From: an uncultured Pseudanabaenaceae cyanobacterium
GTDB lineage: Bacteria > Cyanobacteriota > Cyanobacteriia > PCC-9006 > JAAUQQ01
Direction of reading: 5' to 3'
Assembly: GCA_938021205.1 (NCBI GenBank)
Contig: CALIGI010000151.1
Span: 2,818 to 66,817 of the forward strand
DNA length: 64,000 bases
Notes under the pieces: model-generated
The model's input: only the letters and a program-made list of their open reading frames with translations
Told to the model about the DNA's origin: nothing
Databases searched by the model: none
Position numbers and translations under genes: made by a program
In this document: positions 5,759 to 52,448 of the stretch, in pieces
Layout of the letters: each line of letters starts with the position of its first letter
Position numbering within the stretch: position 1 is the stretch's first letter

Positions 5759-5992
5759 CTAGAGACCAATCCAGGACCAGAAATCCTGGCGAGTAAAAAG
5801 CTGGGTAATGAGCAATGCAGCAAAACCAAGCATGGCAAAACGACCATTGAGGCGCTCCGCATAGTCATTCCAGCCAAAGGAAGGGGCATCGGCTGAACTG
5901 TCTTCGGTTTCAGCCACTTCAGCTGAGTCAGGCAATAGGTCAGCACTTGGCTTTTCGCCTTGAACAGTCGCTTCGGAAGGTTGGGTCGTCAT
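5759..5992 (-). CDS. High-light-inducible protein (CAB/ELIP/HLIP family)
   Basis: The C-terminal 'AERLNGRFAMLGFAALLITQL' is the chlorophyll-binding helix motif ExxNGRxAMxGF. The start is either 5992 or 6067. Confidence 0.8.
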   Translation of the reverse strand: MTTQPSEATVQGEKPSADLLPDSAEVAETEDSSADAPSFGWNDYAERLNGRFAMLGFAALLITQLFTRQDFWSWIGL

Positions 5993-6567
5993 GGAGTAGG
6001 GCTTATCAAAATCTGGTGTTGAGTGTATCGCGTTTCCCTTGGCCATTGTCGATTTTAGGAATGCCACCTTTTCCCACCACTATCGTCGATCAGAATCATC
6101 AGTAGAATTCTGCGCTTTTTTTTATGGTTTACATTGTTTTCTTAAGGTCTACAACAAAGCACCTGAAAGGCCAGAGGCCAGATGACAGAGAAAAACACAG
6201 CGCCCCAGAACAGCCTCCTCTAATCTCCAGGGCAAGTGGCTCTAATGGGTCTAGTCTGCGAAGGATGAGCAGATGAACAGCTTTTCGAGGGTTTAAGCTC
6301 TGCAATTAGGCTGGCAATGCTCACAGCGAACATTTGCATATTGCTCCTCGGAGAGACAGGCAAGTTCACCTAAATATGAATTTGGGAATTCTAGCAATAA
6401 GCCTTCGCGAGAGAGGCAAAGACTTGCGGACTGAGTCACACCGCAAGCCCTTGTGATGCAGCTACATGTAGACGATTGTATCGATTCTTCCCATGCCTGT
6501 ATCAGCATCGCTCGGTGGATTTTTGCAACCTAGGACAACTCATCCAAGGCTTAGTCCGCATTGGCTC

Positions 6568-8652: not shown

Positions 8653-8727
8653 ATTTTATTGAGCAAGCCCATTCTCTTAAGGGACTTCCTATTTTTAAAT
8701 CACCCTGAAATCTTGCCATTTATAACC

Positions 8728-8884
8728 TGAGTTCGGCAGCCGACAAATCGACCTCATCCCCTAACCCCTTCTCCCTTAGAAGAAGGGGAACCGAACGCCA
8801 GCAGTCTGTTTCAGAGCTTTTCATGTTCCCCTCTCCCCAGGGAGAGGGGCTAGGGGTGAGGGCAGCGTCGCTTTGTCGAACTCA
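8728..8884. repeat. Nested palindromic MITE-like intergenic element
   Basis: The outer arms are TGAGTTCG..CGACAAATCGAC..CTCATCCCCTAACCCC and GGGGCTAGGGGTGAGG..GTCGCTTTGTCGAACTCA. There are two inner hairpins (CCCCTTCT/AGAAGGGG and CCCCTCTCC/GGAGAGGGG). It shares AGGGGCTAGGGG with the hairpin cluster near 23.95 kb. Confidence 0.55.
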
Positions 8885-9220
8885 TCAAACATGGCTAAAC
8901 AGTGCAAGGTTCAGAGGCTGAAAGAGGATGATTAAATCCTGGGAGGTCCCTAACTTGCTTAAATTTTTATCGGCTCAACTCGCTTTTATGCAATAGATGT
9001 CATCAGCGTAAACTCTAGGAAAAACAAACATTATTGACTTGAAAAATACTTAGTCGAAAAAGGGTAATCTTGCAATTTTCACATTCAACTTTATCTATAT
9101 CTGTAACTGTTTTTCATTCCTGAGAGCTGGGCAAGATGAACATGTGTGAGTGACTCAGTTGTAATGTAACTGCCACTAGGTCGTTATTTCTGGAGGCCCA
9201 GCAGCCTTTCTGTCATCGAT

Positions 9221-20173: not shown

Positions 20174-22315
20174 ATGGCCTCCTCCTCTAATCAACTCCTG
20201 ACTAGCGTTGCGAAAAAGTATCCCCTGCGGATTGCGGCTAGCATTGTGCTAGGCCTCTCGGGAGCTGTTTTCAATGGCATTGGCACAACGCTGATTGTGC
20301 CTGTCTTGCTTTCATTGATTGGCCAGGAGACCACTTTGGATGGGGGGCCACCGCTGCTGCAAAAGATTTTGTCGCCCTTTGATGCGATCGCCGGGGACTA
20401 TCGCATCCAAGCCATGACCGGCGTCATTATTCTGCTCATCTTCCTCAAAAGCGCCACCAACTATGGCAGCACCCTCGTTTCTACGACCCTGGCTCGCCGC
20501 GTCACCTCGGACTTTCAAGAACAAGGTATTAACCTCATCCTGGATGTGGATGTGGACTACTTCGCCAAAATGCGGGTCGGTGACTTGATGAACCGCCTCG
20601 GGGGCGAAATGAATCGAGCCACTCTGGCCATCACCGGAGCCGTTCAGCTCTTTGTGGCAGCCTCAACCGTCTTCGTATTTTTGGGGATTTTAATTGCCAT
20701 TTCTCCGGCGATCAGCATTGCCACAGTGCTAATTTTCCCTCTATCGATCCTGATCAACCGGGGCTTGATCATCAATTCAAAGCGGTTTGGAAAGCAACTC
20801 TCCCTCGTTAACAATCGCTATTCCAGCGGCCTTGTAGAACTCATTGGCGGGATGCGCCTGGTGCGGGCAACAGGTAATGAAGGCAGAGAGCATAAGCGTT
20901 TCATTGACTTAATTAAAGAACGGGAACGGATCGACTTTTTCGCGAAGGCCAATACTGGGGTGATTGGTCCCCTAGCTGAATTTTTCAACATCATGGCGCT
21001 GTTTGCGATCGTCTTTATTAGCCGCGCTATCTTCGCCAACAACTTAGAGCTGCTGGGCACGATCCTGCCGCTCTACATGATCTTGATCTTCCGCATGTTG
21101 CCCTACATCAGTCAGATCAATACAGCGCGGGATGTCCTGGCCATGTCTTCTTCTCCAATGGAAGTGGTCAACGACATGCTGCGTCGCGACAACAAGAGCT
21201 TTATGCCCCGTAACCATGAGCCTTACCCCGGCCTACAGAGCGACATCGAATTCCAAAACCTACATTTCGGCTATCCCGGTGGCGATGATCTGGTCTTGTG
21301 CGGCATTGATTTAACCTTGCCCAAAGGCACCACCCTGGCCTTAGTCGGTTCATCCGGTGCAGGCAAATCCACCCTAGCAGAGCTGCTGCCTCGCTTCTAT
21401 GACCCCAGCGGCGGCCAAATTATCATTAACGATCGCGACTTACGCGACTATGATATTGCCTCCTTCCGCCGCACCATCGGCATTGTGAGCCAGGAAACCT
21501 TCCTGTTTAACAACACCGTGCGCTACAACCTGGCCTATGGTCGCCCCGAGGCCACGGATGAGGAAATCAACGCTGCCCTGCGCCAGGCCAATGCCTATGA
21601 GTTTGTTCAAGAGATGAGCGAAGGGTTGGACACCGTTGTGGGCGATCGCGGCATCATGCTCTCTGGTGGCCAACGCCAGCGCCTTGCCATTGCCCGCGCC
21701 CTGGTGCAAGATCCCGAGATTCTCATTCTTGACGAAGCCACCAGCGCCTTGGATACGGTGTCGGAGCGATTGGTGCAAGCAGCGATCGATGAGTTGAGTA
21801 AGGAACGCACCACCTTGGTCATTGCTCACCGCCTTTCCACGGTCCGCAAAGCCGATCAAATTGCCGTGCTGGATCAGGGCCGCGTGGTGGAGCTGGGCAG
21901 TCACGATATGCTACTCAAGCAAGGTGGCCTCTATAGCGAATTGCACAATATGCAGGCCGCGAAGCAGAGTGAAGCAGTAGAAGACATTGAAGCTGGAGAT
22001 ATGGAGCCAGCCGCTATTCTGGAGCCAGCCGCTATTGCAGCCCAAACAACCGTTCTGGAGCAAACAGCCATTTTGGAGCAAACAGCCATTGCCCGTAAAG
22101 CCGAGCAAACGGTGATGGCTCAGCTCAAACTCGTTCCCATGTCCTATGAAACGCGATCTATCATGACGGCAATGATTGGCTCTCTGGGACTGCTCGCCGA
22201 TAATTTGGTTGAGACCGAACAGGAACGCAGTGAGCTGTCTCGCGATGCTTATGATTCAGCATTGGAAGTCTTGAAGCGCCTGGAGCGTTTGGAAGAAAGC
22301 GGCCTAAGCTCGTAA
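20174..22315 (+). CDS. ABC exporter, fused permease/ATPase (MsbA-like) with an atypical ~120-aa C-terminal extension
   Basis: A six-helix TMD is followed by Walker A 'GSSGAGKST', the signature 'LSGGQRQR', Walker B 'ILILDEATSALD' and the H-loop 'IAHRLS'. The ATG at 20174 is preferred over the TTG at 20150. Confidence 0.9.
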   Translation: MASSSNQLLTSVAKKYPLRIAASIVLGLSGAVFNGIGTTLIVPVLLSLIGQETTLDGGPPLLQKILSPFDAIAGDYRIQAMTGVIILLIFLKSATNYGSTLVSTTLARRVTSDFQEQGINLILDVDVDYFAKMRVGDLMNRLGGEMNRATLAITGAVQLFVAASTVFVFLGILIAISPAISIATVLIFPLSILINRGLIINSKRFGKQLSLVNNRYSSGLVELIGGMRLVRATGNEGREHKRFIDLIKERERIDFFAKANTGVIGPLAEFFNIMALFAIVFISRAIFANNLELLGTILPLYMILIFRMLPYISQINTARDVLAMSSSPMEVVNDMLRRDNKSFMPRNHEPYPGLQSDIEFQNLHFGYPGGDDLVLCGIDLTLPKGTTLALVGSSGAGKSTLAELLPRFYDPSGGQIIINDRDLRDYDIASFRRTIGIVSQETFLFNNTVRYNLAYGRPEATDEEINAALRQANAYEFVQEMSEGLDTVVGDRGIMLSGGQRQRLAIARALVQDPEILILDEATSALDTVSERLVQAAIDELSKERTTLVIAHRLSTVRKADQIAVLDQGRVVELGSHDMLLKQGGLYSELHNMQAAKQSEAVEDIEAGDMEPAAILEPAAIAAQTTVLEQTAILEQTAIARKAEQTVMAQLKLVPMSYETRSIMTAMIGSLGLLADNLVETEQERSELSRDAYDSALEVLKRLERLEESGLSS
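22004..22093 (+). repeat. 18-bp in-frame tandem repeats (x5) encoding E(P/Q)(A/T)AIL hexapeptides in the ABC exporter tail
   Basis: GAGCCAGCCGCTATTCTG GAGCCAGCCGCTATTGCA GCCCAAACAACCGTTCTG GAGCAAACAGCCATTTTG GAGCAAACAGCCATTGCC. Confidence 0.85.
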
Positions 22316-22815
22316 TTCAATATCTCAAGACCTAGCTTCAATACAACGAAGTGCAAAGAAATGAGGATTAATTAAAATCGCATTAATACTCGATAAATTG
22401 ATTTGAGTTTTCCGACCCCCAATCATGTCAAAGTTCGAGTTTTTCCTTATTAAGTTTCAGGCTTCAGTCCAACCTAAAAAGTTCCTATTACGGTCTAATT
22501 AAATCCTCATTACCTTAGAGTTTTAGCCATACTTACTAACCAGAAAGGCTCAAAATTCTGAATTCAAATTAGAGTCATAGATTACACTTTTGGCAAAAAA
22601 TGAGTCGCCAGACCTCAGGGATAGACTGATTTTAGAAAGGTAAGACCCAGCCCCTCCTCAAAAAGGCTTGAAATGGTCTGTGATTGAACCGTGTACCTGG
22701 GCCAAACCAACACATATCTCCTCCTAATAGAAGGTAGAATTTGCCTTGGCTAGGCCCAAAAGAGTGGGCTTGCTTAGCCTAGCGACTCAAGTCATTGCAA
22801 ACCCACCCTGGCCCC

Positions 22816-23706
22816 TTACCGAAAGGTCAGTAGCTCAGACGTGGCAGTAATTAGATCAGATTGTATGACATAGGCATTCTGCGCCGTGGCTATTAAATCA
22901 CCCCTTAGCAAAATCTTAGTGCTCACTTGAGAACCAATCGTACTGTATTCCAGTGAATAGTTGCTAGTGCTTCCATTAACTACAATCTGATCTCGCTCTT
23001 GCCATGTGAAGTCAGTAATGAGGACATCACCGGTGCCTCGATAGAAACTAGCGCCCGTATCACCTAAAACAAATAGGTCAGCACCACCTCCACCTGTGGC
23101 AAGATCGAGTTCCCCAGTATTCCCAGAAAATGTCTGCCCTGAGCCTCGAAGAATATCTCGTCCTGTTCCACCGTAGAGTGTGTCATTACCGAAAGCAGAA
23201 CCTATGAGTTCATCATTGCCTGATCCACCATCGAGTCTGTCATCGCCAGAGCGACTGAAGAGTCTGTCATTGCCTGGACCTCCATATAATTCGTCATTGC
23301 CAAAGGCACCAGAAATATGGTCATCGCCAGAGCCACCTTCTAGAATGTCACCGTTTTGGCTCCTTGTGGTAATTGTGTCATTACCGGAGCCACCAGAGAC
23401 ATAGTTATCACCAAAGCCAGCAGCCAGGGTGTCATTACCTGGACCTCCATATAACTCGTCATTGTCATCAAACCCAAAAAGACGGTCATCGCCGGGGCCA
23501 CCCGAAAGAAAGTCATCACCATCACGACCTGAAAGAAAATCATTACCAGAGCCACCAAAGATACTGTCATCTTGGATGCTACCTGTCAGATTATCATTTC
23601 CTCCCTTTCCGTTGATTGTCCAAGACTTAACAAAGTCAGGGACTCTAAAGACATCATTCCCATCGGTTCCAATATAGCGGCCTTCGTAAACTTCCATTGT
23701 GATCAT
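22816..23706 (-). CDS. RTX-type (haemolysin-type) calcium-binding repeat protein
   Basis: 296 aa with more than 12 nonapeptide GGxGxDxLx repeats (GGSGNDFLSGRDGDDFLSGGPGDDRLFG...) and a non-repeat C-terminal beta-rich domain. Confidence 0.85.
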   Translation of the reverse strand: MITMEVYEGRYIGTDGNDVFRVPDFVKSWTINGKGGNDNLTGSIQDDSIFGGSGNDFLSGRDGDDFLSGGPGDDRLFGFDDNDELYGGPGNDTLAAGFGDNYVSGGSGNDTITTRSQNGDILEGGSGDDHISGAFGNDELYGGPGNDRLFSRSGDDRLDGGSGNDELIGSAFGNDTLYGGTGRDILRGSGQTFSGNTGELDLATGGGGADLFVLGDTGASFYRGTGDVLITDFTWQERDQIVVNGSTSNYSLEYSTIGSQVSTKILLRGDLIATAQNAYVIQSDLITATSELLTFR

Positions 23707-23911
23707 CCTGAATTGAGCTATCTGATTAACGACTTAGTGAGCATGAAGTGAACTGTTTTAGTTGGATCTTTCCATCTAAGTGGGTCGGCAGAAATAAAAG
23801 TGCCACCCTATTCTTTAAAAGCCTGACTGGCTGGGGAGATTGTTCACAGAAATCACGCTCGCTGACTTAAGAACGAGGATTGATTAATCCCACAATTTGA
23901 TGAGCTTCCTC

Positions 23912-24012
23912 CCATTGCCTTCGGTAGACTCAGGCAATGGAAGGGGCTAGGGGGATCTTTGGGTGGTAAGGCAAACAGCTGATCCCCCTCCCCCCCCTTA
24001 AGAGGGGAGAGC
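23912..24012. repeat. Cluster of three adjacent hairpins, G/C-tract palindromic repeat
   Basis: The hairpins are CCATTGCC..GGCAATGG, AGGGGGATC..GATCCCCCT and CTCCCC..GGGGAG. The cluster shares AGGGGCTAGGGG with the element at 8728-8884. Confidence 0.4.
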
Positions 24013-24801
24013 CTAATTTAATTCTCGTTCCTTAGAATCGTGATTTTGAGTTAGAAACACTGATTCATCTGCTAAATCATCTAGATTCACGACATTAAGT
24101 ACAATCCCAGAAAGCATCTACATGAATGATTTCATGAAACTTTACTTCCCGAAATTCATCATCTAATTGCTCTCTAAGAAGCTTAATTTTGACTTTAGTT
24201 GAATTTAGAGATCACAGATCAAAACGGCGATTTTAATCTCAACAACTGATTCACTACCCTGACAATCTAAGTTGTTTGTTTTGTCATGGTACAACACTCT
24301 AAAATATTTTTATAAAAGTGATTTAAGCCAGAAAAACAAGAGTGAGTATATAGTTTAGCTAGTGGTAAGTTATGAAACTTATGGAAGGGTATAAACCCTG
24401 AAAAACAGAGGAATAATATATTATTTTTCTGATAGATTAAAAAATAAATAGCGTAGACTTCAAGGCTGAGACCCTATCGCAAACATGCTTTTAGCGTGGC
24501 TTTTTTTCGTGATTGTGGCGATTTATAGTTCTTTTACACTTCTTCCTGTGTTTCTTTTAGTACATCGAAAGACAGTTTGAGAATAGTTGTTAAACATCTC
24601 CTTTTGAAGCAAATAGACTCAGTCAGCGTTAGTTAATTGAGGGATGTATTGACGAAGCAATGAATTCTTCAAAGCATTCGAATCTAAGGAGTACAGCGTT
24701 ACCTGCTATTTTGAAAACCTCCCCTATTTCAGCAACACCGGAATTTCCAGAACTGTAATATGTCCCAGGCCCTGGTGGGCAGGGCCCTAAGTCGCTAATG
24801 C

Positions 24802-26970
24802 CTAGCGTCCTGCCACAGGTGACAGATTATTGCCGTACTTTGCCATCAGTTGAGACATCTCAGGGTTATACAACCGCATGTAATTCCAGTAATTCTCAAA
24901 CACATGCTCCACATAGCCCCGAGTCTCCGGGAAGGGAATCTTCTCCACAAAGCTATCCACATCCTCATTCTTAAACCGCTGCACCCAGTCCGCCACATTG
25001 CCTGGCCCAGCGTTATAGCTCGCCACTGCCAGCATGGAATTCCCATTCCACTCCTCATGAGTATAGTTGAGATACCAAGTCCCCATCTTGAGGTTATCTA
25101 GCGGGTCCGTCAGCTCAAATTCATCGATCCCTGCATTGGGTGCAACCCAGTCCGCCGTTGCTGGCATGACCTGCATCAGCCCGCGTGCACCAACGACTGA
25201 GCCAATACTCGGCATAAAACGCGACTCCTGGCGAATCAGGGCTGTTACGAGTAGCGGATTCAGCTTCTCATTCTTGGAAGCCTGCTGAATATCTTCAAAA
25301 TAGGGCAGGGGGTAGAGCGCATACCAATATTCAGCCTGGCGGCTCAGGGCCTCATATTCAGCCTTTTCTTTGGGGTCATCGCGGAAGGCCAAGCTACCAA
25401 TCATGTAGATACCATCCAGGTGGTCACCCACGCCCAAACGCAACAGTCCATCGGTGAACTGCTCTGCCACACTGGGGTCCTGGCGATTGATGAATTCGGT
25501 TTGCCACAGCTCCCAAGCCGCTTGATCTTCGCCGATCGCATACAGTTCATTCACTGCCTCAGAGCCCGCAGGCAGGTTACCTCGCTGGGTGTGGGGCACC
25601 ATCTCCGGGGAGAGGTCTTTCACCGAGAGGAAGTCACCTACAGGTAAACCCAAAACGGCCGCTGCTCGCCAAGCATAATAAGAATCGGGATAGTCCTTCA
25701 GCAAACTGTTAAAGGCCTCAGCAGCTTGCGGGTTTTGCTGGAGCTTTTGCTGCCAGCGACCCTGCCAAAAGATAGCTCGGGGAGTGTTCTCATGGCCGAC
25801 ATTGAACTTTTGGATATCTGAAGTGAGCTGGACTGCTTCTTTGAAGCTATTGACCTCGGCATATTTCTCCGCCAGTTCCCAGCGCAATTCCGCCGCTGCA
25901 TCGGACTTGGGATGCTGCTGAAGCAGGAACTGCCGCATCTGAGAGGCCGAGTCTTGGCTACTGAGCTTGTCTAGCAATCGCGATTTTTGCAATAGCGCTT
26001 CCGGCGCATGGTCCGGGTAAGCCTGAATCAACTGCTCCCAGTAGGGCAAGGCTTTTTGGCCTGAGCTCATTTCTGCCAAGCGCTTGAGGGATAGGCCCGC
26101 TTCTTCTGTCCCAGCAAAGGACTGAGCGACCTGGATATAGATCGGCTTGGACTTGCTTTGTTGTTCGCTGAGCTGGAGGCTACGGGCTGTGCGGTAGAGA
26201 TGCTTGGCATTGGCGGGAGCCTTGGCATAGGCCTTGGCTCCGCCTTTGAAGTTGAGCTTTTCCCAATGGGCAAAGCCAACATCCGCCCAGTCTTCGGGCT
26301 TAAGCTGAATATCTTGCTTCTCGACGAGGTCAGTCAAAACCTGATCTAGGGTTTCGGTGTGGAGGCCGTGGCGCACGACCTGCATCATGAGGTTGGTGTT
26401 TTTGGGTTCTTTTTTGAGGCGGGCGATCGCCAGTTCCACAGTCTTTGGATAGCTGGGGAAGCGAGATAGCGCTTGACTCCCATAGCTATCGTCTTTCTCC
26501 GCCAACGTGATGAGAGCTGCCGCAATCACTGGGCTATCGCCCTCCAGTGCAGCTAGTTCCTGCCAAACCGCTTCAGCCTGATTGACATTGCCCAGCTTTG
26601 TCAGCGCCTGGGCCCGCATAGCCAGTACCTGAGGAGCCAATAGTTTGTAATCTGTATCCAAGCCCTGAAGCCAATCCAAGGCTACCTGGGGCTGCTCTGC
26701 CAGGGCACGATGGGCAAGGATATAGCGAGCCCGATTGCGAGCTTGATCCGCGTTGGGCCGCTTGGCAATGAGCTCAAGCTGGAGATCATTGAGCTGCTGT
26801 AAGCCTTTTGCCTCGGGTGACTGGGGAGATCTGGCCAGGGTTTCGACCCTCGGGCGGTCCTCCCGCAGGGACGAAGCGAGGGGAATGAGAATGCCAGCGG
26901 CAGCCCCCAGCGTCATGGCCGTAATAGCGCTGGCTAAGAGAATAAAATTGAGCCTGGGATTTTTCGGCAT
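24802..26970 (-). CDS. Soluble lytic murein transglycosylase (Slt70-like, superhelical N-domain + SLT domain)
   Basis: The C-terminal 'ALIRQESRFMPSIGSVVGARGLMQVMPATA...AVASYNAGPGNV' is the SLT catalytic domain. The N-terminus has a signal anchor after M25 (MPKNPRLNFILLASAITAM). The ORF opens at 27042. Confidence 0.85.
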   Translation of the reverse strand: MPKNPRLNFILLASAITAMTLGAAAGILIPLASSLREDRPRVETLARSPQSPEAKGLQQLNDLQLELIAKRPNADQARNRARYILAHRALAEQPQVALDWLQGLDTDYKLLAPQVLAMRAQALTKLGNVNQAEAVWQELAALEGDSPVIAAALITLAEKDDSYGSQALSRFPSYPKTVELAIARLKKEPKNTNLMMQVVRHGLHTETLDQVLTDLVEKQDIQLKPEDWADVGFAHWEKLNFKGGAKAYAKAPANAKHLYRTARSLQLSEQQSKSKPIYIQVAQSFAGTEEAGLSLKRLAEMSSGQKALPYWEQLIQAYPDHAPEALLQKSRLLDKLSSQDSASQMRQFLLQQHPKSDAAAELRWELAEKYAEVNSFKEAVQLTSDIQKFNVGHENTPRAIFWQGRWQQKLQQNPQAAEAFNSLLKDYPDSYYAWRAAAVLGLPVGDFLSVKDLSPEMVPHTQRGNLPAGSEAVNELYAIGEDQAAWELWQTEFINRQDPSVAEQFTDGLLRLGVGDHLDGIYMIGSLAFRDDPKEKAEYEALSRQAEYWYALYPLPYFEDIQQASKNEKLNPLLVTALIRQESRFMPSIGSVVGARGLMQVMPATADWVAPNAGIDEFELTDPLDNLKMGTWYLNYTHEEWNGNSMLAVASYNAGPGNVADWVQRFKNEDVDSFVEKIPFPETRGYVEHVFENYWNYMRLYNPEMSQLMAKYGNNLSPVAGR

Positions 26971-36558: not shown

Positions 36559-37893
36559 ATGACACCCCTAGAACAACTCCGCACTGGCCAGCTTGCCGGT
36601 AGCAAACACTTTCAACTCGCCAGCGGCGTGACCGATTTTCCTTCAGAAATTTTTGACTTGGCTGACAGCCTCGAATTTCTCGACCTCTCCCATAACAACC
36701 TGAGCGCACTGCCAGACAACTTTAGTCAGCTTAAGCAGCTTAAGATCGTCTTCTTCAATAAAAATCAATTTGAGGAATTTCCTCCTGTCTTGGCAGATTG
36801 CCCCCAACTGTCCATGGTTAGCTTTAAGGGCAATCAATTGAAGGCGATCGCCCCCCAGGCGCTCTCTCCCAACTTCCGCTGGCTCATCCTCACCAACAAC
36901 CAGCTCACCTCACTTCCTAGCAATATCGGCCAACTCAAAAAACTACAAAAGCTAATGCTAGCCGGGAATCGGTTGCGATCGCTCCCTCCTGAATTAGCCA
37001 ACTGCCACAACCTTGAACTCATTCGCATCGCAGCCAACCAGCTGACGGAGTTCCCCACCTTTCTCCTAAAACTTCCTCGCCTCGCTTGGATTGCTTACGC
37101 GGGTAACCCGTTCTGCCAACCTGACATCACCTCTAAAACTGAATTACCCGTTGTTGATTCAGCGACCTTGAAAGTCGGCGAGATCTTGGGCCAAGGGGCT
37201 TCTGGCGTGATCTATCAAGGGAGCTGGAAGCCTCACAAGGGTGAGCAATCCCAAGCCGTCGCTATCAAAAAATTCAAAGGCGAAATCACCAGCGATGGCT
37301 CTCCCCTAGACGAAATGCGCGCCTGCATTGCCGCAGGTAGCCACCCAAACCTCGTCAGTGTCCTGGCGAAGTTAAATGAAAAAGCCGATAGCAATGGTCA
37401 AGCTGGTCTCCTGTTTGACCTGCTTGCCAAGGACTATCAGAACCTAGGTGGGCCACCTAGCTTAGACAGTTGTACCCGAGACACTTACAGCGATGAAACC
37501 CGCTTTACCCTGGAACAAATCCTCACCATCGCCAAAGGCATCGCCTCTGTCGTTGCCCACCTGCACCAGCGGGGTATTCTCCACGGCGACCTCTACGCCC
37601 ACAACATTCTTGTTAATCCTCAGGGTCACAGTATTCTGGGTGATTTTGGCGCGGCATCCTTCTACAACCCAGCGAATCAAGACATGGCTCAACCACTAGA
37701 GCAGCTAGAAGCTCGTGCCTTTGGCTGCTTGCTGGAAGACTTACTGGATCGCTATATCCCAGATGAGAACGAAACCAGTGCAGCGCAATCTAGCCTACGC
37801 AGCCTACGCCAACTCCAGCAAAACTGCATGACCAACAACCCTAGCGATCGCCCCAGTTTCACAGATATTTGCCAACAATTCTCCCACCTCTGA
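36559..37893 (+). CDS. Leucine-rich-repeat + protein kinase fusion
   Basis: The N-terminus carries about 7 LRRs (LxxLxLxxNxLxxLP, e.g. LEFLDLSHNNLSALPDNF). The C-terminal kinase domain has 'LGQGASGVIY', 'VAIKKFK', 'HGDLYAHNILV' and 'LGDFGAA'. Confidence 0.85.
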   Translation: MTPLEQLRTGQLAGSKHFQLASGVTDFPSEIFDLADSLEFLDLSHNNLSALPDNFSQLKQLKIVFFNKNQFEEFPPVLADCPQLSMVSFKGNQLKAIAPQALSPNFRWLILTNNQLTSLPSNIGQLKKLQKLMLAGNRLRSLPPELANCHNLELIRIAANQLTEFPTFLLKLPRLAWIAYAGNPFCQPDITSKTELPVVDSATLKVGEILGQGASGVIYQGSWKPHKGEQSQAVAIKKFKGEITSDGSPLDEMRACIAAGSHPNLVSVLAKLNEKADSNGQAGLLFDLLAKDYQNLGGPPSLDSCTRDTYSDETRFTLEQILTIAKGIASVVAHLHQRGILHGDLYAHNILVNPQGHSILGDFGAASFYNPANQDMAQPLEQLEARAFGCLLEDLLDRYIPDENETSAAQSSLRSLRQLQQNCMTNNPSDRPSFTDICQQFSHL

Positions 37894-45651: not shown

Positions 45652-46341
45652 ATGACTGCTGCTACGCCACTAAATGTTTTTGTTGCTGGAGCCAGTCGTG
45701 GTGTGGGGTTTGAAGTTGCGAAAGGATTAGCCCAAAAGGGCTATCAAGTTGTGGCTTTGTTGCGAACTTTTGATGCGCGATCACAACTTGAATCTCTGGG
45801 GGTTAGCGTCCTGGTCGGTGATGCGTTGGATGCTGACTTTGTGAATAAAGCGATGCAATGGTTTGGCTCTGAGCCATTTGCTGTGGTGACAACCCTGGGG
45901 GGCAAAGGCTTTACCCGCGACCAACCCCGCGCCGATTATCTGGGCAATCGCCATCTTGTGGATGCGTTGAAATCACAGCCCTGTCAACGATTTATTTTGG
46001 TGTCTTCGATTGGGGTGCGAGGGAGTGCCGTTGCGCTTCCTGCACAGGTGCTAGAAACGCTGCGCCTTGCGGTCCTTGCCAAAGCCAAGGCTGAGGAACA
46101 TCTGATCGCGAGTGGTCTGCCTTTTACGATTGTGCGTCCTGGAGGGTTGCTATCCGAACCTGCGACGGGGACGGGCGTTCTTGTGGCAGATGAGAGCATT
46201 GCAGGCAGTATCACGCGGATCGATGTTGCCGAGCTGGTTGTTCAGTGTTTGGCATCGGCTAAGGCTGGGAATCAGGTGCTTTCGGCGGTTGATCGCGATC
46301 GCATTCGCAGTGAGTATCCTATCGTTCCATTCGTCCTGTAA
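45652..46341 (+). CDS. NAD(P)H-binding atypical SDR (NmrA/HSCARG-like)
   Basis: 229 aa with 'VFVAGASRGVGFEV', 'FILVSSIGV' and 'FTIVRPGGL'. Confidence 0.8.
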   Translation: MTAATPLNVFVAGASRGVGFEVAKGLAQKGYQVVALLRTFDARSQLESLGVSVLVGDALDADFVNKAMQWFGSEPFAVVTTLGGKGFTRDQPRADYLGNRHLVDALKSQPCQRFILVSSIGVRGSAVALPAQVLETLRLAVLAKAKAEEHLIASGLPFTIVRPGGLLSEPATGTGVLVADESIAGSITRIDVAELVVQCLASAKAGNQVLSAVDRDRIRSEYPIVPFVL

Positions 46342-46470
46342 CGTCTTGCATAACCAGTAGGTAGGCTTCGCAAATTTCTTCTGCGATGGGGAGGGAGGCT
46401 TTTTTCGGTCGGGCTGCGACTGCAATGGACGAAGCCAGGGCTGGTGAGCCTGCTGTTTGGCGGGCTGCTT

Positions 46471-46671
46471 ACCTGAGACGTCGGCCCGACCAACGAGGAG
46501 GCTGTTGAAGCCCATGATTTCGTAAATTCGCTTTTCGATATCCACTTGATAGCGTGGTAGCAGTTTGGGAGTCAGTGCGTCAGTAATGGCCACGATGAGC
46601 TTGTTGCGGACGACACGACCCCCTTCTGGATGTTCCAGATAGGGGGTCATGCCGGGGAAGGGAGCGCTCAT
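46471..46671 (-). pseudogene. DUF4058-family gene fragment (N-terminal ~67 codons only)
   Basis: It begins MSAPFPGMTPYLE..., the hallmark DUF4058 N-terminus. The remainder of the 173-aa ORF is low-complexity and runs antisense into the SDR gene, so the gene appears truncated. Confidence 0.55.
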
Positions 46672-46813
46672 GGGACGATTAAGAAATCCGCTGCTAGGGT
46701 TGAGAAGATTAGGGTTGAAGTTCTGGCTTTTAGTTTAAGCGATCTCCATCAACATACTCAGCGCAAAATTGTGATCCTGCTGAGTGACTGATATGAAATA
46801 ACTACAGATTTTG

Positions 46814-49480
46814 CTAAGAACTCAAATTTATAGTGGGTAGACAATGGGTATCCAACTTTTGAACTCTTAAGCATTGATTTATGCCACCAATTGCTTGATT
46901 ATATTCATTCACTCGACCTTGAATTTCAAGTTTTAATTGCCCTCGCTTTGCCAAATACTCACTAGCATTTTCTTTTGCAATGCCTTCTAAACGCTTGCGT
47001 GCGTGTTCATATTGATCAACGATAGAATTCCTTAAGGTTCGGGATAGTTCTACGGATAAATGCTTTTTGAGTCTTTGATTAACCGATTGGCGAAAAGTTA
47101 GTTCAATAGTTTCATAGACTTTAGGCTCAAAGTCTAGTTTGAGAAGCTGGCGAATTCCATCCTCAGTACCAGTTAAGCCCTCATGATTAGATTTTTGTGA
47201 ATGCTGCTTTAGGATTTGACGAATATGACCAATAGAGAATGTTTCCTGGTCGTATAAAGGTAATTTTTCTTTTAAAAATGGATCACGCTGAGCATCTACT
47301 TCATTTAAAACTATCTGCTTTACTTCGTTTAACAAGCGTCTTGCTGCCTCTGGATCAGGAGTTGAACCCTCTATAAAAAGATTTAAAAAAGCATCCGCTA
47401 AAGCGTCTGTTCTGAACACCTTTTCAATAAAACTAAAGAAAAGACCACTGAATGCGCGTTTTGCTTCAGCCGCTAAAAATGCATCATAAAAACTAAGACT
47501 CTCTCTAATATAGCGATCACAGATAACATTTATTTCTCGTTCAACATCATTGATTGTATCATTCTTCTTCTGTAAAATATCTTGAATTATACCAGCATCA
47601 TGACCAATTAATTCGTTTAGAGCCAGATAGGAATCTGATTTTCGAACTCTATTTAATAGGCTTTCAAAAAAAGAGTTTATGACTTCTTTCGCTTCTTTCA
47701 CGAAAACGATTTCTATCGAGCTTGAAAGGAAATAGAAAGCTTCAACTAATACTCCTAAGAATGGGGCAGTAGAATTATCTCGAACTAGAGTTGCAGACTT
47801 ATATAGTTGTTGAACTGAGAGGTTTGAAAGAAGCTCATCTAGTTTTTTGATGATAGAGCTCTTAAGTCTCTGAAAAGAATCCTCAAAATTTGAATCTTCT
47901 CCAGCAATTACCTGAGAAACTACTTGCTCAATATCCATACTTATTGAATCCGAGATATCTTGAAGCTGTTGAAAAATTTGGTTTAATTGAGCAGATTCAA
48001 TCTCTTCTATTCTCTGTGATTGATTTCCCAAATCATGAAATTTTGAGGTGTAAAAATTCCTTAGGCTGGTAGATATTGGTTTTAAGTCATTGACTAAATC
48101 TTTAAATAATTGAGGGCGTTTTTCATCTTCCAAATAACGAGTAATTGTAGAGTTAAAGCCTATTTTTTCACCTTGATCTTCAATGCCACTGTCTTGAAGA
48201 AGTTTGTCAAGTATAGGAATCTCTAAGAGACCAAGAATAGCAAGATATTTTTGATTAGAAGATAAGTTAGCTAAGTTCTTATCACCATCAAATGGATTAA
48301 GACCAGAACCTTTAAGCTTAGGAGAAGAAAGACAATACTTATTGAATTCATATACAAATTGTGGGGTCTTCTCCTCCTTGTCTAAATCTTCATTACTGAT
48401 TGAGAAAATATCTCTCAAGCCCCAAGATTTATCTCGATTATTATTGTTTTTTACTCTACTACCATAAAAGCTAAGTAGTGCACTAGTTTTAAAGAGTCTT
48501 CCTTCCTCACAAGCAACTCTAAAATCAGAATTAATTAGATTTTTTAATCGATCTGAAAGTTCATTATTGTCCCAGGTGTCATCGATTCGATTGAAGACAT
48601 AGAAAACCCTATCGCGAATGCTCGGATTACTCCTCAATTTCTCGAGCAAGTCCATTTCTTCTATAGTCGGATCACCTGTTGAAGCTGCCTTGAGCACACA
48701 AATAATTGCCGATGTGTCAGGATCTTCTTCTATCTTGTCGTAAGTGATTTTGGCATCTTGTGCGACTGGTGCATCAATACCTGGAGTATCAACTAGGATA
48801 TTTCCATCCTCTAACAAGGAATGATTCAAATAATATTCAATCTTCTCCAGAACGGCAGCATTTGACCCATATCGTGCGTATTCAGCAGCACTCTCAAGAT
48901 TAGAAAGTTTAAGCTGCTCCATTGAATAAGGTGTTGGAGTATCCTGATGAATATTCCCTTGATTTTTCTTAAAGCCTTGTATCAAAAACACGAGTGACTG
49001 AGCTTGCCTTGCGGACTCTGAATGACTCTTTCCAGGTTCTTTATCGATGATTTCCCTACACTGCTTTAGTAAATTTTCGACCTCATTTCCTTGACTAATA
49101 TTTGATACAGGCTTGATCTCTAAAATCTCACATAGTGCATTCATTCTTGCTTGAATTTTCCTACGACTCATAAACGTAAGAACTACCTTCTCCGCTCCAA
49201 TTTCAGCATATTGAATGCGGCACTCTGTGCTGGTTGTATGCCCTTCAGAGCTATACAACAGCTCTTTACCCAAGACTGCATTAATGAGCATAGATTTGCC
49301 AGCACTAAAAGCACCAACAAAAACAATCTCAAAACTAGACGAAACTACTTTTTTGAGCGAAGCCTCTAAATATGAGATATCCTGCTTTGGAATATCATTC
49401 TCTTGATTAATTAGATACAATAGAGTATCGACACAAGTTTCTATATTTTGATATTCGAGCAAACCTGAGCTATCTTTCAT
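46814..49480 (-). CDS. Bacterial dynamin-like GTPase (888 aa)
   Basis: G1 is 'GAFSAGKSMLINAVLG', G2 is a Thr in 'EGHTTST', G3 is 'LVDTPGIDAP', and G4 is 'VFNRIDD'. A long helical stalk-like C-terminal region follows. The gene is markedly AT-rich relative to its neighbours. Confidence 0.85.
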   Translation of the reverse strand: MKDSSGLLEYQNIETCVDTLLYLINQENDIPKQDISYLEASLKKVVSSSFEIVFVGAFSAGKSMLINAVLGKELLYSSEGHTTSTECRIQYAEIGAEKVVLTFMSRRKIQARMNALCEILEIKPVSNISQGNEVENLLKQCREIIDKEPGKSHSESARQAQSLVFLIQGFKKNQGNIHQDTPTPYSMEQLKLSNLESAAEYARYGSNAAVLEKIEYYLNHSLLEDGNILVDTPGIDAPVAQDAKITYDKIEEDPDTSAIICVLKAASTGDPTIEEMDLLEKLRSNPSIRDRVFYVFNRIDDTWDNNELSDRLKNLINSDFRVACEEGRLFKTSALLSFYGSRVKNNNNRDKSWGLRDIFSISNEDLDKEEKTPQFVYEFNKYCLSSPKLKGSGLNPFDGDKNLANLSSNQKYLAILGLLEIPILDKLLQDSGIEDQGEKIGFNSTITRYLEDEKRPQLFKDLVNDLKPISTSLRNFYTSKFHDLGNQSQRIEEIESAQLNQIFQQLQDISDSISMDIEQVVSQVIAGEDSNFEDSFQRLKSSIIKKLDELLSNLSVQQLYKSATLVRDNSTAPFLGVLVEAFYFLSSSIEIVFVKEAKEVINSFFESLLNRVRKSDSYLALNELIGHDAGIIQDILQKKNDTINDVEREINVICDRYIRESLSFYDAFLAAEAKRAFSGLFFSFIEKVFRTDALADAFLNLFIEGSTPDPEAARRLLNEVKQIVLNEVDAQRDPFLKEKLPLYDQETFSIGHIRQILKQHSQKSNHEGLTGTEDGIRQLLKLDFEPKVYETIELTFRQSVNQRLKKHLSVELSRTLRNSIVDQYEHARKRLEGIAKENASEYLAKRGQLKLEIQGRVNEYNQAIGGINQCLRVQKLDTHCLPTINLSS

Positions 49481-49588
49481 TTACCTTTCTTCCTTGGATG
49501 GATTGTTAATTTAGGTTATGTTTTTCTTGAAATAAAATTAATAAATTTAAATTTGACCAAGTCTCTTGTCGACTTGAAATAATAGTTG

Positions 49589-50260
49589 TCATGACGGGTT
49601 TATACCTTCCATCTTGGTTTGGTAAATAATTGCTCTAGATATATCAATACCCTGTAACAATGAGTGACTTAAATCTGCGCTGGTTAAATCAGTCTCAATC
49701 AGCGTTGCATAACTTAGATTAGAATTACTGAGATTTGAACCAACAAAACTTGTATGACTTAAATCAGCTTCCCTAAGGTCTGCTCCAGCTAAGTCAGAGG
49801 CTAAAAATGAGCTGCGGCTTAGACATGCCTTCCGTAAAACGGCTCCTCTTAAATTCACTCCAATTATATAGAGCCCTTGCAGGCTTGCTCCAGTTAAATC
49901 AACTTCATTGAAGCATCGTTCTCCTGCATTGTATCGCCTTAGAAAATCATCAGCACTCAACCGTAGCGTATTGATTTCAGTGGCACCATGCATACTCTGG
50001 ATAGAGTTGGCATAGCCTCGCAACAAGCTTTTGCCTGAAGTATTTGCATCTATCTCAACAGCATTTGATTCCTGAATATTATCTGCTGGAGAGAGTAGAT
50101 TAGAGCTGTTAACTGATTTTGAACTAACCAATTCACCGGAATCGAAAGGCAACTTTTTTTCATAATTTCCTAAAGTTTTATTATTTATTGTCACACCTTC
50201 TTGAGCCAAGAGATACCACGCCAATAGGATGATTAAAAGAGCTATTAATATGTAAATCAT
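49589..50260 (-). CDS. Membrane-anchored pentapeptide-repeat protein
   Basis: The N-terminal helix is MIYILIALLIILLAWYLLA. The C-terminal ~100 aa are A(D/N)LxX repeats (DLTGASLQGLYIIGVNLRGAVLRKACLSRSSFLASDLAGADLREADLSHTSFVGSNLSNSNLSYATLIETDLTSADLSHSLLQGIDIS). It lies 108 nt upstream of the dynamin gene on the same strand. Confidence 0.85.
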   Translation of the reverse strand: MIYILIALLIILLAWYLLAQEGVTINNKTLGNYEKKLPFDSGELVSSKSVNSSNLLSPADNIQESNAVEIDANTSGKSLLRGYANSIQSMHGATEINTLRLSADDFLRRYNAGERCFNEVDLTGASLQGLYIIGVNLRGAVLRKACLSRSSFLASDLAGADLREADLSHTSFVGSNLSNSNLSYATLIETDLTSADLSHSLLQGIDISRAIIYQTKMEGINPS

Positions 50261-50739
50261 TTATGGTTTTGCTTTCTCTGAGTTGACCAACAATAATCAC
50301 TTCTCCTAAATATTAGGGAGTATAGTATTTGGTGATGCAAAACATTAAAGAGTGAAAGATCACATCCTTTATTTGGGCGCACAAAATCAGAGTCTTTCAA
50401 GTAGTAAGTTGATGCTTTATCATGAATTAAAACTCAAAAGCTTGAATTTGTACTCAATCTACTGTTAGTTGTATTGTCTGACAGAAAATCTCGTGCTTGC
50501 ACTAAGATCTAAATTGAATCACTCCCGTCATCCTCTTCCAAAATTAAGGAGTAGATCAGAACTTAACAGTCTATTTACCTGTTAAGCCTTGTTATGACGA
50601 TGCAATTCTGCATCACAATTCTAATGTAGGTCGTTATGCAGAAAATCATCATCCTAACTAACAAAATTGTTACATTTAATCCTGCTACTGTCGCACTAAA
50701 ACTTGAACCATGGAGCTACTGCCCAATATTGAGGTTCCT

Positions 50740-50769
50740 GTAAAAGAGTTCAGAGCTATCGCCCTGAAC
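50740..50769 (-). terminator. Hairpin + T-run (array intergenic module, copy B)
   Basis: The minus strand reads GTTCAGGGC-gata-GCTCTGAAC followed by TCTTTTAC. It is homologous to the hairpins at 51798-51819 and 52467-52488, with compensatory base changes. Confidence 0.5.
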
Positions 50770-50833
50770 TTTAGTTTAAGCGATCGCCCATAGCTCTCTC
50801 AATGTCAGACAAACCAACGCTAGAATTCTAGCG

Positions 50834-51196
50834 TCAACACAAGGCCACAATAAATTTGCCCAACAGGTACGCTAAAATCAAGCAGGGGTAGGTAATGTGT
50901 TGTGTTGTGCCCTGATCTCGATGATCGCAGGTCACACTGGCATCTGGATAAACATAGTCATCTGTATTAAGAATGTTGACTCTAATATCCGAATTACCAG
51001 TGATGCAATCACCCTCTGACAGATGAGCATCAAGCATCGAAGTCAAGCGAATGGCAATGCGGCCATGGTTGACCGTCCCGCTACTCATGGCATAAACCTG
51101 ACCGTCAATATACTCATGCTTTTCGAGCTGCTGCTCTTCCCAAGCAAAGTACTCCTCAGGCGTGAGCTGTGGTGACTTATCCTTCGCAGCAACCAT
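50834..51196 (-). pseudogene. Uma2 (DUF820) family endonuclease gene with internal deletion
   Basis: The first ~107 aa are closely similar to the 192-aa paralog at 51870-52448 (SPQLTPEEYFAWEE.QLEKHEYI.GQVYAMS...YPCLI). The frame then jumps to sequence homologous to the paralog's stop region, so the core with the catalytic E/K region is missing. Confidence 0.7.
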
Positions 51197-51199
51197 GAT

Positions 51200-51775
51200 T
51201 TATCCCAAAGCCCCCCGAAATGTCCGCGCTGCCTCTACTCGCGAATTCATCAACACACAACGCGTCAATAGCTCAAAATCCAACTCAGGAAACAGCTCAC
51301 TCCTCGTCACCTGCTCATAGCCATCCCTGCCCAGGCAATGCACCGCAAACAAACCATCCTCCCAGAACCAAACCTCCTTCACGCCCAGCACCGCATATCG
51401 CGCCAGCTTACTCGGTCCCCCACTGGAAAACACCACCTCAACCGACAGATCCGGAATTGCCTTCTGTTCCCCTAAGCAGTAAGACTCATCCGCCTGTGCT
51501 GAAGCCGCCCCATCCTTCTCCTGATTCATCGAGCCCGTTGGCGTAAACTCAATCCCCTTCTCCACCAGGAAAATTTCAATCAGCATCCCAATGATGCTCT
51601 TGTAAATCTCATGCTCCGGACTGACCGTCAAAATCTCTACCGTCCCGCTCAAATAAAACAGCCGCACATTGGGGCAGCCCGCAAACCCTTCCTGAATTTT
51701 CTTAAACCGCTCCCAGGGAATGCCTCGCTGGCCAATCCACTGATCCTGCTGCTTTCGCTCTAAAAGTTGAACCAT
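51200..51775 (-). CDS. Uma2 (DUF820) family endonuclease, type B
   Basis: From the ATG at 51775 the protein reads MVQLLERKQQDQW...RLFYLSGTVEILTVSPEHE...IPDLSVEVV. The PD-(D/E)xK-like pattern is typical of Uma2. The ORF opens at 51862, but that stretch is the conserved intergenic module. Confidence 0.8.
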   Translation of the reverse strand: MVQLLERKQQDQWIGQRGIPWERFKKIQEGFAGCPNVRLFYLSGTVEILTVSPEHEIYKSIIGMLIEIFLVEKGIEFTPTGSMNQEKDGAASAQADESYCLGEQKAIPDLSVEVVFSSGGPSKLARYAVLGVKEVWFWEDGLFAVHCLGRDGYEQVTRSELFPELDFELLTRCVLMNSRVEAARTFRGALG

Positions 51776-51789
51776 GATGTTGTTGCTCA

Positions 51790-51819
51790 ATAAAGGAAGC
51801 CAGAGCCAAAGCCCCAGCT
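51790..51819 (-). terminator. Hairpin + T-rich tract (array intergenic module, copy A)
   Basis: The minus strand reads AGCTGGGGC-tttg-GCTCTGGCT (G-U pairs allowed) followed by TCCTTTATT. Confidence 0.45.
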
Positions 51820-51869
51820 TGTAGTTTTGCGCGATCGCCCATACTCCCCTCGATATGAGCAAACAAACG

Positions 51870-52448
51870 CTACGACTCTGGATTCAAAGTAAGACCGCGA
51901 TAGACCTGCTCAACCGGAAAACTAAGATTGATACTTTTCAGCTCAATCACATCCCCTGCTTGATAATTCAGAATGATCCAATCACCCGTATCTTGTTTTT
52001 GATATAGATCTATTTCAATACTGGTGGAACTAACCAACAGGTAATCCAGTAGAACTGGATTATTCCGATACATTCTGAACTTCCCCCCCCGATCATAGGC
52101 TTCCGTGCTCTTAGATAGCACCTCCACAATCAGACAGGGATAAGTGATGTATTGCGTTGTGTCTTGGTCCCGCTCATCACAGGTAACACTGACATCTGGA
52201 TAAGTGTAGTCATTCGTCCCAGCAATATTGACCCTCAAATCTGAATTGCCTGTTTCACAGCCGTTTCCCTCTAAATGGTTGGCAAAGGTCGTGATAAGTC
52301 GGACAGCAATCAGACTATGGTTTTTGCTGCCGCCACTCATGGCATAAACCTGGCCACCAATATACTCATGCTTTTCGAGCTGCTTTTCTTCCCAAGCAAA
52401 GTACTCTTCAGGTGTGAGTTGGGGTGAGTTCTCTTTTACAGCAATCAT
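51870..52448 (-). CDS. Uma2 (DUF820) family endonuclease, type A
   Basis: 192 aa. Reads '..EYIGGQVYAMSGGSKNHSLI...YPDVSVTCDERD...PCLIVEVLSKST..YDRGGKFRMY'. Confidence 0.85.
   Translation of the reverse strand: MIAVKENSPQLTPEEYFAWEEKQLEKHEYIGGQVYAMSGGSKNHSLIAVRLITTFANHLEGNGCETGNSDLRVNIAGTNDYTYPDVSVTCDERDQDTTQYITYPCLIVEVLSKSTEAYDRGGKFRMYRNNPVLLDYLLVSSTSIEIDLYQKQDTGDWIILNYQAGDVIELKSINLSFPVEQVYRGLTLNPES

Follow-up and report, generated by a model that had tools for sequence, protein, structure and literature searches.

The 64,000-nt stretch analysed here (the window; contig CALIGI010000151.1 of an uncultured Pseudanabaenaceae cyanobacterium) contains a low-GC block in which the gene of a membrane-anchored pentapeptide-repeat protein (PRP) stands upstream of the gene of a dynamin-like GTPase, both on the minus strand. 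We interpret the block as an operon of two genes gained by horizontal transfer, with co-transcription assumed, and as a rare variant of the SynDLP module. Judged from sequence comparison, the cassette is a rare, conserved and horizontally moving two-gene module present in at least three backgrounds, where it replaces the association of the dynamin with a KGK-domain protein. The initial annotation of this DNA had reported two co-oriented genes 108 nt apart, and both open reading frames (ORFs) were found intact, with lengths of 223 and 888 aa (coordinates of all features are collected in Table 1). It had also presented the pair as a candidate undescribed module. This was supported for the pairing, as no paper describing a dynamin together with a membrane-anchored pentapeptide-repeat protein was found in the literature; the family of the dynamin is known and structurally solved. 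The features that look undescribed are the transmembrane (TM) pentapeptide partner, an insertion at the stalk tip, and the loss of KGK; the SynDLP family itself is known.

A SynDLP-type dynamin and the pentapeptide-repeat protein encoded next to it

In a phmmer search against the PDB, the 888-aa protein matched chain 7zw6_A (Slr0869) with an E-value of 1.8e-191, query residues 10–666 and 742–884 aligning with chain residues 8–652 and 650–790, respectively. Pfam detected Dynamin_N with an E-value of 1.7e-17, so the earlier call of a dynamin-like GTPase domain was right. The GTPase is not an uncharacterised dynamin, being a member of the SynDLP/Slr0869 family, for which a cryo-electron microscopy (cryo-EM) structure and a usual partner, KGK, are known. 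The alignment identifies it as a full-length SynDLP/Slr0869 homolog that falls into the ‘KGK clade’ among cyanobacterial dynamin-like proteins, and an orphan dynamin was rejected by the same strong full-length match. More than 1500 homologs were found, nearly all cyanobacterial, 800–830 aa long, and annotated as ‘dynamin-like GTPase family protein’; a single-protein scan of GTDB genomes returned nothing. The clade owes its name to a KGK-domain gene (PF08872) that usually lies downstream (Jilly 2018, PMC5827413). The cryo-EM structure of SynDLP showed a eukaryote-like fission-dynamin stalk, and among bacterial proteins, SynDLP was described as the one most closely related to the fission dynamins of eukaryotes (Gewehr 2023, PMC10104851; PDB 7ZW6).

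The window dynamin and SynDLP have the same domain order, namely the first bundle signalling element (BSE1), an enlarged GTPase domain, BSE2, stalk, and BSE3, and they share the G motifs and a cyanobacterial host. The GTPase motifs are intact, as the initial annotation had stated: GAFSAGKS at residues 56–63 (with K62), DTPG at 231–234, and NRID at 297–300. The extended P-loop (GxxxxGKS..LINA) reads GAFSAGKSMLINAV at residues 56–69, and the G1, G3, and G4 columns were invariant in family alignments A1 and A9, as were those of the switch-I region GHTTSTEC in the family alignments. Sequence identity to every canonical member was 47–49%. The mean column identity of alignment A1 was 67% with the window protein included, the canonical members being much more alike. 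Unlike SynDLP, the window dynamin carries a 75-aa insertion, a Tyr for Cys8, and a VRDN loop. The Cys8 column, part of the BSE disulfide C8–C777, is occupied by Tyr10; Cys is retained at this column in the two closest relatives, P0246 and P0394, and the C777 equivalent, C870, is retained in the window dynamin. The HPRN loop (oligomerisation interface 3, stalk tip) is VRDN at residues 566–569 of the window protein, and the sister proteins have YRNN or YRKN at this place, with one Arg and the Asn alone remaining.

The insertion (residues 667–741) was absent from all canonical members in the alignment, where it lies between SynDLP D652 and E653, inside the P648–L665 segment. Phe accounts for 9 of its 75 residues compared with 4.6% overall, and its amphipathic helices reached a hydrophobic moment (µH) of 0.54, in the top 5% of the protein. 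AlphaFold2 (AF2) predicted four helices in the insertion at low confidence (predicted local distance difference test, pLDDT, below 55). As the AF2 model was too low in confidence for placement in three dimensions, the insertion was placed by the SynDLP alignment and Supplementary Fig. 14 of the SynDLP paper. P0246 and P0394 showed collinear, similar insertions, and all three are about 70–75 aa long and predicted to be helical. The P648–L665 segment was tested by the SynDLP authors as a putative membrane-interaction site (Gewehr 2023, PMC10104851).

The two relatives were obtained in successive searches. A HMMER search of 1.8e9 cluster representatives gave divergent members with insertions at the same stalk-tip site, and among these, P0246, on the 4.9-kb metagenomic contig L084, had the insertion collinear with and similar to that of the window. 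Directly upstream of P0246, co-oriented and separated by 90 nt, L084 carries a gene for a PRP whose N-terminal TM helix is joined by a P/Q/S-rich linker to pentapeptide repeats. Searching with a profile of the window protein plus P0246 yielded one more member, P0394 on contig L094, with a TM-PRP gene upstream on the same strand and a 59-nt gap. P0246 and P0394 were the sole proteins to score above canonical members on the clade profile. Neighbour-joining grouped the window protein with (P0246, P0394) as sister to the canonical clade with a bootstrap value of 71/100, and the shared collinear insertion, as aligned, also supports this clade. The pair was retained although the dynamins are 42% and the PRPs 31–33% identical.

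Chance adjacency was rejected for the clade, since the same TM-PRP/dynamin architecture was present in L084 and L094, and the order, orientation, and short spacing kept across a divergence of 42% identity argue for a functional link. No terminator-like site was found in the 108-nt spacer between the window genes. Pairing as a general property of the family was rejected. The neighbourhood survey covered 80 of at least 533 GTDB loci from diverse cyanobacteria with a ranking that favours canonical members, and more members of the clade may therefore exist. A pentapeptide ORF was detected within 6 kb in only 1/80 canonical loci, where it was on the opposite strand, 569 nt off, and not adjacent. 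KGK was the common partner: the immediate downstream ORF was KGK (PF08872) in 39/75 canonical loci, and a KGK-like ORF occurred in 49/80 canonical and 0/13 divergent loci. The upstream neighbours of canonical loci were heterogeneous. The HMM that gave the 49/80 count detected no KGK-like ORF in the six frames of the whole window. The pairing is thus no chance association within the insertion-bearing clade (3/3 known members: window, L084, and L094, all of them without the usual downstream KGK gene), and it does not extend to the family at large. Compared with the SynDLP locus, the window locus is without a downstream KGK gene, has an upstream gene for a TM-anchored PRP, and lies on a compositionally foreign island.

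The upstream gene codes for a protein with tandem A(D/N)LXX repeats, which scored 77.9 bits against PF00805 (cutoff 20.2) in 2 stretches, and the pentapeptide-repeat domain had accordingly been named correctly (Pfam E-value in Table 1). Its membrane anchor was likewise supported: the 19-residue Kyte–Doolittle window peaked at 2.78 at residue 1, and AF2 gave a helix at residues 2–27 with pLDDT 80–91. Pfam and PDB matches begin at residue 101, AF2 showed strands with a 5-residue periodicity at 119–203, and the closest solved relatives are cyanobacterial beta-helices, e.g., 3du1 and 2j8k (E 2e-21). The scores for known functional classes were below the NCBIfam cutoffs (Qnr 33.7 bits vs 240, MfpA 28.7 vs 360, and HetL 66 vs 260), and the topoisomerase-protecting Qnr and MfpA proteins are without the N-terminal TM anchor that the window PRP has.

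Only one full-length homolog was detected among 5.8e9 proteins. This protein, P0126, came from a TARA marine metagenome and was 55% identical; its 1.4-kb contig ends 116 nt past the PRP stop codon, too early to show the downstream gene. A JGI metagenome scan with the PRP alignment gave only a generic 36% PRP. An identical PRP together with the start of the dynamin gene was present in an independent read set (Logan ERR9287623, 1.8-kb contig). The four PRPs (window, P0126, L084, and L094) have in common the TM helix, a conserved Trp, an N-cap motif, and a C-terminal motif, and the motif DDFLRRYNAGERCFNEVDL of the beta-helix domain occurs in all of them; the linker is variable and of low complexity across the four. 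No charged residue precedes the TM helix in the window PRP, and none of the four has a basic n-region. K/R-rich stretches follow the TM helix in P0126 and L094, and the window PRP is nearly neutral there (net charge about +1). From the missing basic residues before the TM helix and the K/R-rich stretches after it in P0126 and L094, the positive-inside rule predicts that the topology is probably N-out/C-in, with the repeat domain in the cytoplasm.

Other divergent members of the family showed different neighbours. P0255 (878 aa) forms a separate divergent lineage with a soluble 412-aa PRP 75 nt downstream (L085:6001–9950, also L086 and L087), and this locus may be a second, independent dynamin–PRP association. 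The contigs L085–L087 also carry DUF3854 and Toprim/DUF3991 genes, a context like that of plasmids or integrative and conjugative elements. No PRP was present in four other divergent lineages, two of which carry a small downstream HNH gene, and a third adjoins a Tubulin_2 protein. The small HNH endonuclease gene (81–84 aa) stands directly downstream of SynDLP-family genes at L088:3594–3848, at L092:3619–3864, and in 5/75 canonical loci, and it is a second recurrent neighbour of the family besides KGK, in divergent and canonical members alike. The L088 dynamin also adjoins a phage-type integrase fragment and a ParA-like gene. P0256 (L089:1413–8608, also L090 and L091) is convergent with two further genes, which code for a 533-aa protein (family unknown) and a Tubulin_2 (PF13809) protein of 1021 aa.

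Composition and edges of the island

The block, interpreted as a horizontally acquired island, is foreign by GC content, GC at third codon positions (GC3), tetranucleotide signature, and absence of HIP1 sites. The GC content was 0.358 in the block (46781–50678) and 0.517 in the rest of the window. The dynamin and PRP genes showed GC3 values of 0.28 and 0.31, respectively, compared with 0.46–0.68 for eight other window genes. In its tetranucleotide signature, the block correlated with the remaining window sequence at 0.23, compared with 0.78–0.91 for fifteen other 3.9-kb chunks. The correlation of the island with the related cassettes of L084, L094, and L081 was 0.92, 0.89, and 0.78, respectively. 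The L084 cassette had a GC content of 0.33–0.39, below that of its contig ends (0.44–0.49). Across different genomic backgrounds, the cassette thus retains a low GC content of its own. These results bear out the initial annotation, which had called the block foreign in composition; its four hand counts of G+C in 60-nt lines (21/60, 18/60, 27/60, and 43/60) were exact on recount.

HIP1 (GCGATCGC) occurred at 65 sites in the window compared with 0.9 in shuffled sequences. A HIP1-free gap of 4485 nt (46295–50780; Poisson P about 0.011) spans the block, in agreement with the earlier remark that the octamer was missing from it. Two further HIP1-free gaps of comparable size were observed at 21642–26423 and 5245–9305. 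As both overlap lower-GC stretches, a local lack of HIP1 seems to mark atypical DNA generally in this genome.

The left edge first given for the block (46782–50661) was kept at about 46780, and the right edge was moved to about 50678, where a Uma2 remnant starts. The block was found to hold no integrase or transposase ORF, as had been noted before, and the island showed no mobility genes, tRNA target, or target-site duplication. The scan for promoter-like and terminator sites gave nothing above shuffles, including the region 50261..50678 upstream of the PRP gene. A phage or plasmid origin was rejected: INPHARED and IMG/VR yielded no relative, and PLSDB yielded only dynamins of 25% identity.

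A perfect 16-nt direct repeat, GATCGCTTAAACTAAA (minus strand), is present at 46729–46744 and 50770–50785. It was considered as a target-site duplication and rejected, because it belongs to a shared leader of PD-(D/E)xK genes and lies beyond the compositional edges of the island. The repeat is part of a HIP1-containing element of about 34 nt, which stands 58–59 nt upstream of the starts of the DUF4058 fragment and Uma2-B2. A diverged third copy of the 34-nt element is found at 51826–51859 in the leader of Uma2-B1, about 50 nt upstream of the probable ATG. The element seems to be a leader or promoter common to PD-(D/E)xK-type genes.

An imperfect hairpin of about 95 nt (GCTAAC...CCGACCGCCG...CGGCGGGTG...GTTAGC) was observed at L084:159–250, L084:4180–4270, and L094:3803–3891. 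It stands in direct orientation on both sides of the L084 cassette and downstream of the L094 cassette. The window does not contain the hairpin, and none of the other fetched loci contains its core motif; it had no Rfam match, and in folding energy it did not surpass shuffled sequences. The hairpin could represent a repeat of the miniature inverted-repeat transposable element type or the ends of a mobile unit.

Possible functions of the pair

A beta-helix tethered by a long flexible linker and co-inherited with a dynamin that has a new membrane-proximal tip module suggests that the PRP may be a membrane adaptor or regulator, recruiting or nucleating the dynamin. We put this proposal forward tentatively, as a serious possibility that stays a little short of probable. 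In such a mechanism, the PRP would be anchored in either the cytoplasmic or the thylakoid membrane and expose its beta-helix to the cytoplasm, and it would recruit or nucleate the dynamin oligomer, plausibly via the clade-specific stalk-tip insertion. It would thereby take the place of the KGK partner, in the manner of the TM-anchored adaptors that recruit Drp1 in eukaryotes. The assembled GTPase would then remodel or repair the same membrane, in stress repair or in anti-phage defence.

Drp1 is a fission-type dynamin without a pleckstrin homology (PH) domain that needs single-pass TM adaptors (Fis1, Mff, and MiD49/51). These adaptors are unrelated in sequence to the window PRP, and the interaction proposed here is hypothetical, with Drp1 as an analogy only. 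The only known precedent for a PRP–GTPase partnership is MfpA–MfpB of mycobacteria, in which, as in the window, the PRP is encoded beside a GTPase, with which it is functionally coupled (PMC3575795). MfpB is a small Ras-like GTPase and MfpA a soluble DNA mimic acting on gyrase, whereas the window PRP is membrane-anchored.

Several points weigh against the adaptor proposal. Replacement of SynDLP P648–L665 by a Gly-Ser linker did not abolish binding to DOPG liposomes (Gewehr 2023, PMC10104851), which leaves the stalk-tip segment an unproven site of membrane contact. The instances are three complete cassettes and one PRP-only fragment, and as L084 and L094 are 74% identical to each other, the independent observations are few. 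The AF2 models were of low confidence for both proteins (dynamin, pLDDT 62; PRP, pLDDT 50). The predicted TM topology follows from the positive-inside rule, which is weak for the window PRP with its net charge of about +1. A beta-helix facing the periplasm or lumen, as in many cyanobacterial and plant PRPs, could not touch a dynamin in the cytoplasm directly. The support for the clade could be inflated by long-branch attraction. Contact between the PRP and the dynamin, like their co-transcription, is an assumption of the model.

An anti-phage or membrane-surveillance module, in which the TM-PRP would sense a phage component or envelope damage and the dynamin would seal or disrupt the membrane as in DynA or Eleos, is compatible with the adaptor mechanism and differs in the biological role it claims. 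This role is suggested only by context, and we consider it possible and still on the unlikely side. The island is small, compositionally foreign, and apparently mobile between backgrounds, and the adjacent Uma2-A1 and Uma2-B1 matched the PADLOC phage-defence-candidate families PDC-S03 (E 7.5e-29) and PDC-S17 (E 1.4e-66). Downstream of the L094 cassette (L094:4121–4268), we observed the N-terminus of a defence-type AAA ATPase (PDC-M07A E 2.5e-22, also HEC-01A, NsnB, AriA, and GajA); the match covers 49 residues of a gene cut by the contig end, and the PDC families are candidates. Other divergent SynDLP-like genes have neighbours of mobile-element type, namely the integrase, HNH, and ParA-like genes beside the L088 dynamin and the plasmid-type DUF3854/Toprim genes of L085–L087. 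In the literature, pentapeptide repeats are among the predicted sensor repeats of bacterial antiphage proteins related to NLRs, and phage-related membrane repair was considered by the SynDLP authors themselves.

However, no model of PADLOC-DB v2 matched the PRPs of the window, L084, L094, and L085, and the dynamins gave weak LeoA/LeoBC matches of 13–35 bits, too low to be meaningful, those to LeoA being confined to the N-terminal P-loop region and those to LeoBC extending over more of the GTPase domain. The PDC families are themselves only putative defence families. Cyanobacteria carry Uma2 genes in very large numbers, and the other neighbours in the window are of the housekeeping type. No relatives were found among INPHARED phages or IMG/VR contigs.

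A likeness to LeoA/Eleos or DynA, which the initial annotation had cited as dynamin-like GTPases linked to phage defence and membrane repair, was not confirmed, as the scores were far below thresholds and came mostly from the N-terminal P-loop or GTPase domain. PADLOC LeoA scored 26.4 bits over residues 13–85 only, NCBIfam DLP_LeoA_gen scored 20.8 bits vs a cutoff of 325, and the NCBIfam DynA equivalog NF052648 scored 45.2 bits vs a cutoff of 1600. The island holds two genes only, with no second dynamin (LeoBC) gene. Membership in either system was rejected by these model scores and the missing partner. The Eleos anti-phage system (LeoA/LeoBC), together with E. coli LeoA, is alike in having a dynamin-superfamily GTPase on an island with a proposed membrane-linked defence role; its partner is a second dynamin, LeoBC, whereas the partner here is a PRP, and the similarity is at the level of the P-loop only. 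DynA of Bacillus subtilis is a bacterial dynamin-like GTPase in membrane remodelling and repair and a functional precedent for phage-related membrane protection, but it is a fusion of two dynamin units, whereas the window protein is single with one GTPase domain. To our knowledge, DynA has no accessory membrane protein of the PRP kind. If the defence role is true, the pair would represent a dynamin-based system distinct from Eleos and DynA.

Alternatively, the PRP and the dynamin may work independently or on the two different faces of the membrane, with a periplasmic or lumenal repeat domain that is only co-inherited with the dynamin or signals to it via the TM helix. Solved relatives of the PRP include lumenal proteins, e.g., 3n90, the thylakoid lumenal 15 kDa protein, the window PRP is almost without net positive charge after the TM helix, and its hydrophobic segment begins at residue 2, a pattern also known from uncleaved signal anchors. 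This arrangement appears quite improbable, because none of the four PRPs has a basic n-region before the hydrophobic segment, the K/R-rich juxtamembrane C-terminal side in P0126 and L094 favours a cytoplasmic repeat domain, and order, orientation, and short spacing were strictly kept over the 42%-identity divergence. Least of all do we expect the pair to be inert horizontally transferred cargo, a SynDLP xenolog with a neighbouring PRP that is decaying and now functionless: the flanks are full of gene remnants (truncated Uma2, Uma2-B2 remnant, and DUF4058 fragment), the codon composition is not ameliorated (GC3 0.28–0.31), and the dynamin has lost Cys8 and has a changed HPRN loop, but no frameshift or stop interrupts either ORF (888 and 223 codons, both complete), the dynamin has kept every catalytic GTPase motif and family-invariant column, and an identical PRP and dynamin gene start exist in Logan ERR9287623.

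The adaptor proposal has a wider form, in which the single-pass PRP with its cytoplasmic beta-helix would be a dedicated receptor of a eukaryote-like fission dynamin, docking on the stalk-tip insertion at the position of the PH domain or B-insert, and the cassette would travel between cyanobacteria and protect membranes against phage or envelope damage. Taken as a whole, this wider form is unlikely. If true, it would be the first bacterial dynamin–adaptor system and the first membrane-recruitment role for a pentapeptide-repeat protein. The exchange of KGK for a membrane-anchored PRP together with the tip insertion offers a testable handle on the membrane recruitment of SynDLP-type dynamins, and the sub-lineage is relevant to the question whether recruitment via adaptors is older than the eukaryotes. 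Pentapeptide-repeat proteins, numerous in cyanobacteria and mostly without assigned function, gain a specific candidate partner.

Flanking genes and other features of the window

Table 1. Position, strand, and supporting evidence of the features of the island and its flanks
Feature	Position	Strand	Evidence
Low-GC island, about 3.9 kb; two-gene cassette and AT-rich upstream region	46781..50678	-	Composition, HIP1
AT-rich non-coding stretch upstream of PRP gene, presumed promoter region	50261..50678	-	No ORF of at least 60 aa; GC 0.32–0.37
PRP gene, 223 aa, bitopic	49589..50260	-	Pfam Pentapeptide E 3.8e-22
PRP N-terminal TM helix, residues 1–20	50201..50260	-	Kyte–Doolittle, AF2
PRP S/N-rich linker, residues 21–99, probably disordered	49964..50200	-	AF2 pLDDT 22–39
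PRP beta-helix domain, residues 100–223, N-cap helix and about five coils	49592..49963	-	Pfam, PDB, AF2
Intergenic spacer, 108 nt, purine-rich stretch before dynamin start codon	49481..49588	-	Equivalent gaps: L084, 90 nt; L094, 59 nt
Dynamin-like GTPase gene, 888 aa, SynDLP-type	46814..49480	-	phmmer vs PDB 7zw6, Dynamin_N
GTPase motifs	48581..49315	-	G1 GAFSAGKS 49292–49315; switch-I region GHTTSTEC 49220–49243; G3 DTPG 48779–48790; G4 NRID 48581–48592
Clade-specific insertion, 75 aa, residues 667–741, Phe-rich, predicted helical, stalk tip	47258..47482	-	Alignment
Left flank, DUF4058 N-terminal fragment	46441..46671	-	Pfam E 1.1e-16, residues 1–77 only; profile 1–77 of 254
Right flank, degraded second Uma2 pair copy	50679..51196	-	A2 50834–51196 truncated; B2 remnant 50679–50808

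The initial annotation had placed the block amid Uma2 and DUF4058 genes, and the flanks were confirmed by Pfam as a DUF4058 fragment and three Uma2 genes. The DUF4058 fragment starts 142 nt past the dynamin stop codon, and the remainder of its ORF overlaps a convergent NAD(P)H-binding gene at 45652–46341. On the right, at 50679–52448, a unit of two Uma2 genes is duplicated in tandem; Uma2-A1 (51870–52448) and Uma2-B1 (51200–51862) are intact and Uma2-A2 has a deletion of about 200 nt. The direct repeats D1–D4 match the intact pair (51200–52448), and in tblastn, Uma2-A2 aligned with residues 1–111 of Uma2-A1 only. The Uma2-B2 remnant (130 nt) consists of the leader and eight codons, followed by a stop.

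Other neighbours in the window are of the housekeeping type (MetH, UDG, glycolate oxidase subunits, and a transglycosylase), and no Rfam families were detected in the window or the related contigs. A second low-GC patch was observed at 22250–24750, inside the largest HIP1-free gap (21642–26423). It contains a gene for an RTX calcium-binding repeat protein (22816–23706), followed at 24000–24750 by a stretch with a GC content of 0.32–0.37 and no ORF of at least 80 aa. Two genes code for proteins with a two-partner secretion (TPS) domain (6493–8652 and 9221–11713), the first of which lies in a stretch of GC 0.46 in the gap 5245–9305. At 36559–37893, the window codes for a 444-aa protein with leucine-rich repeats and a Ser/Thr/Tyr protein kinase domain.

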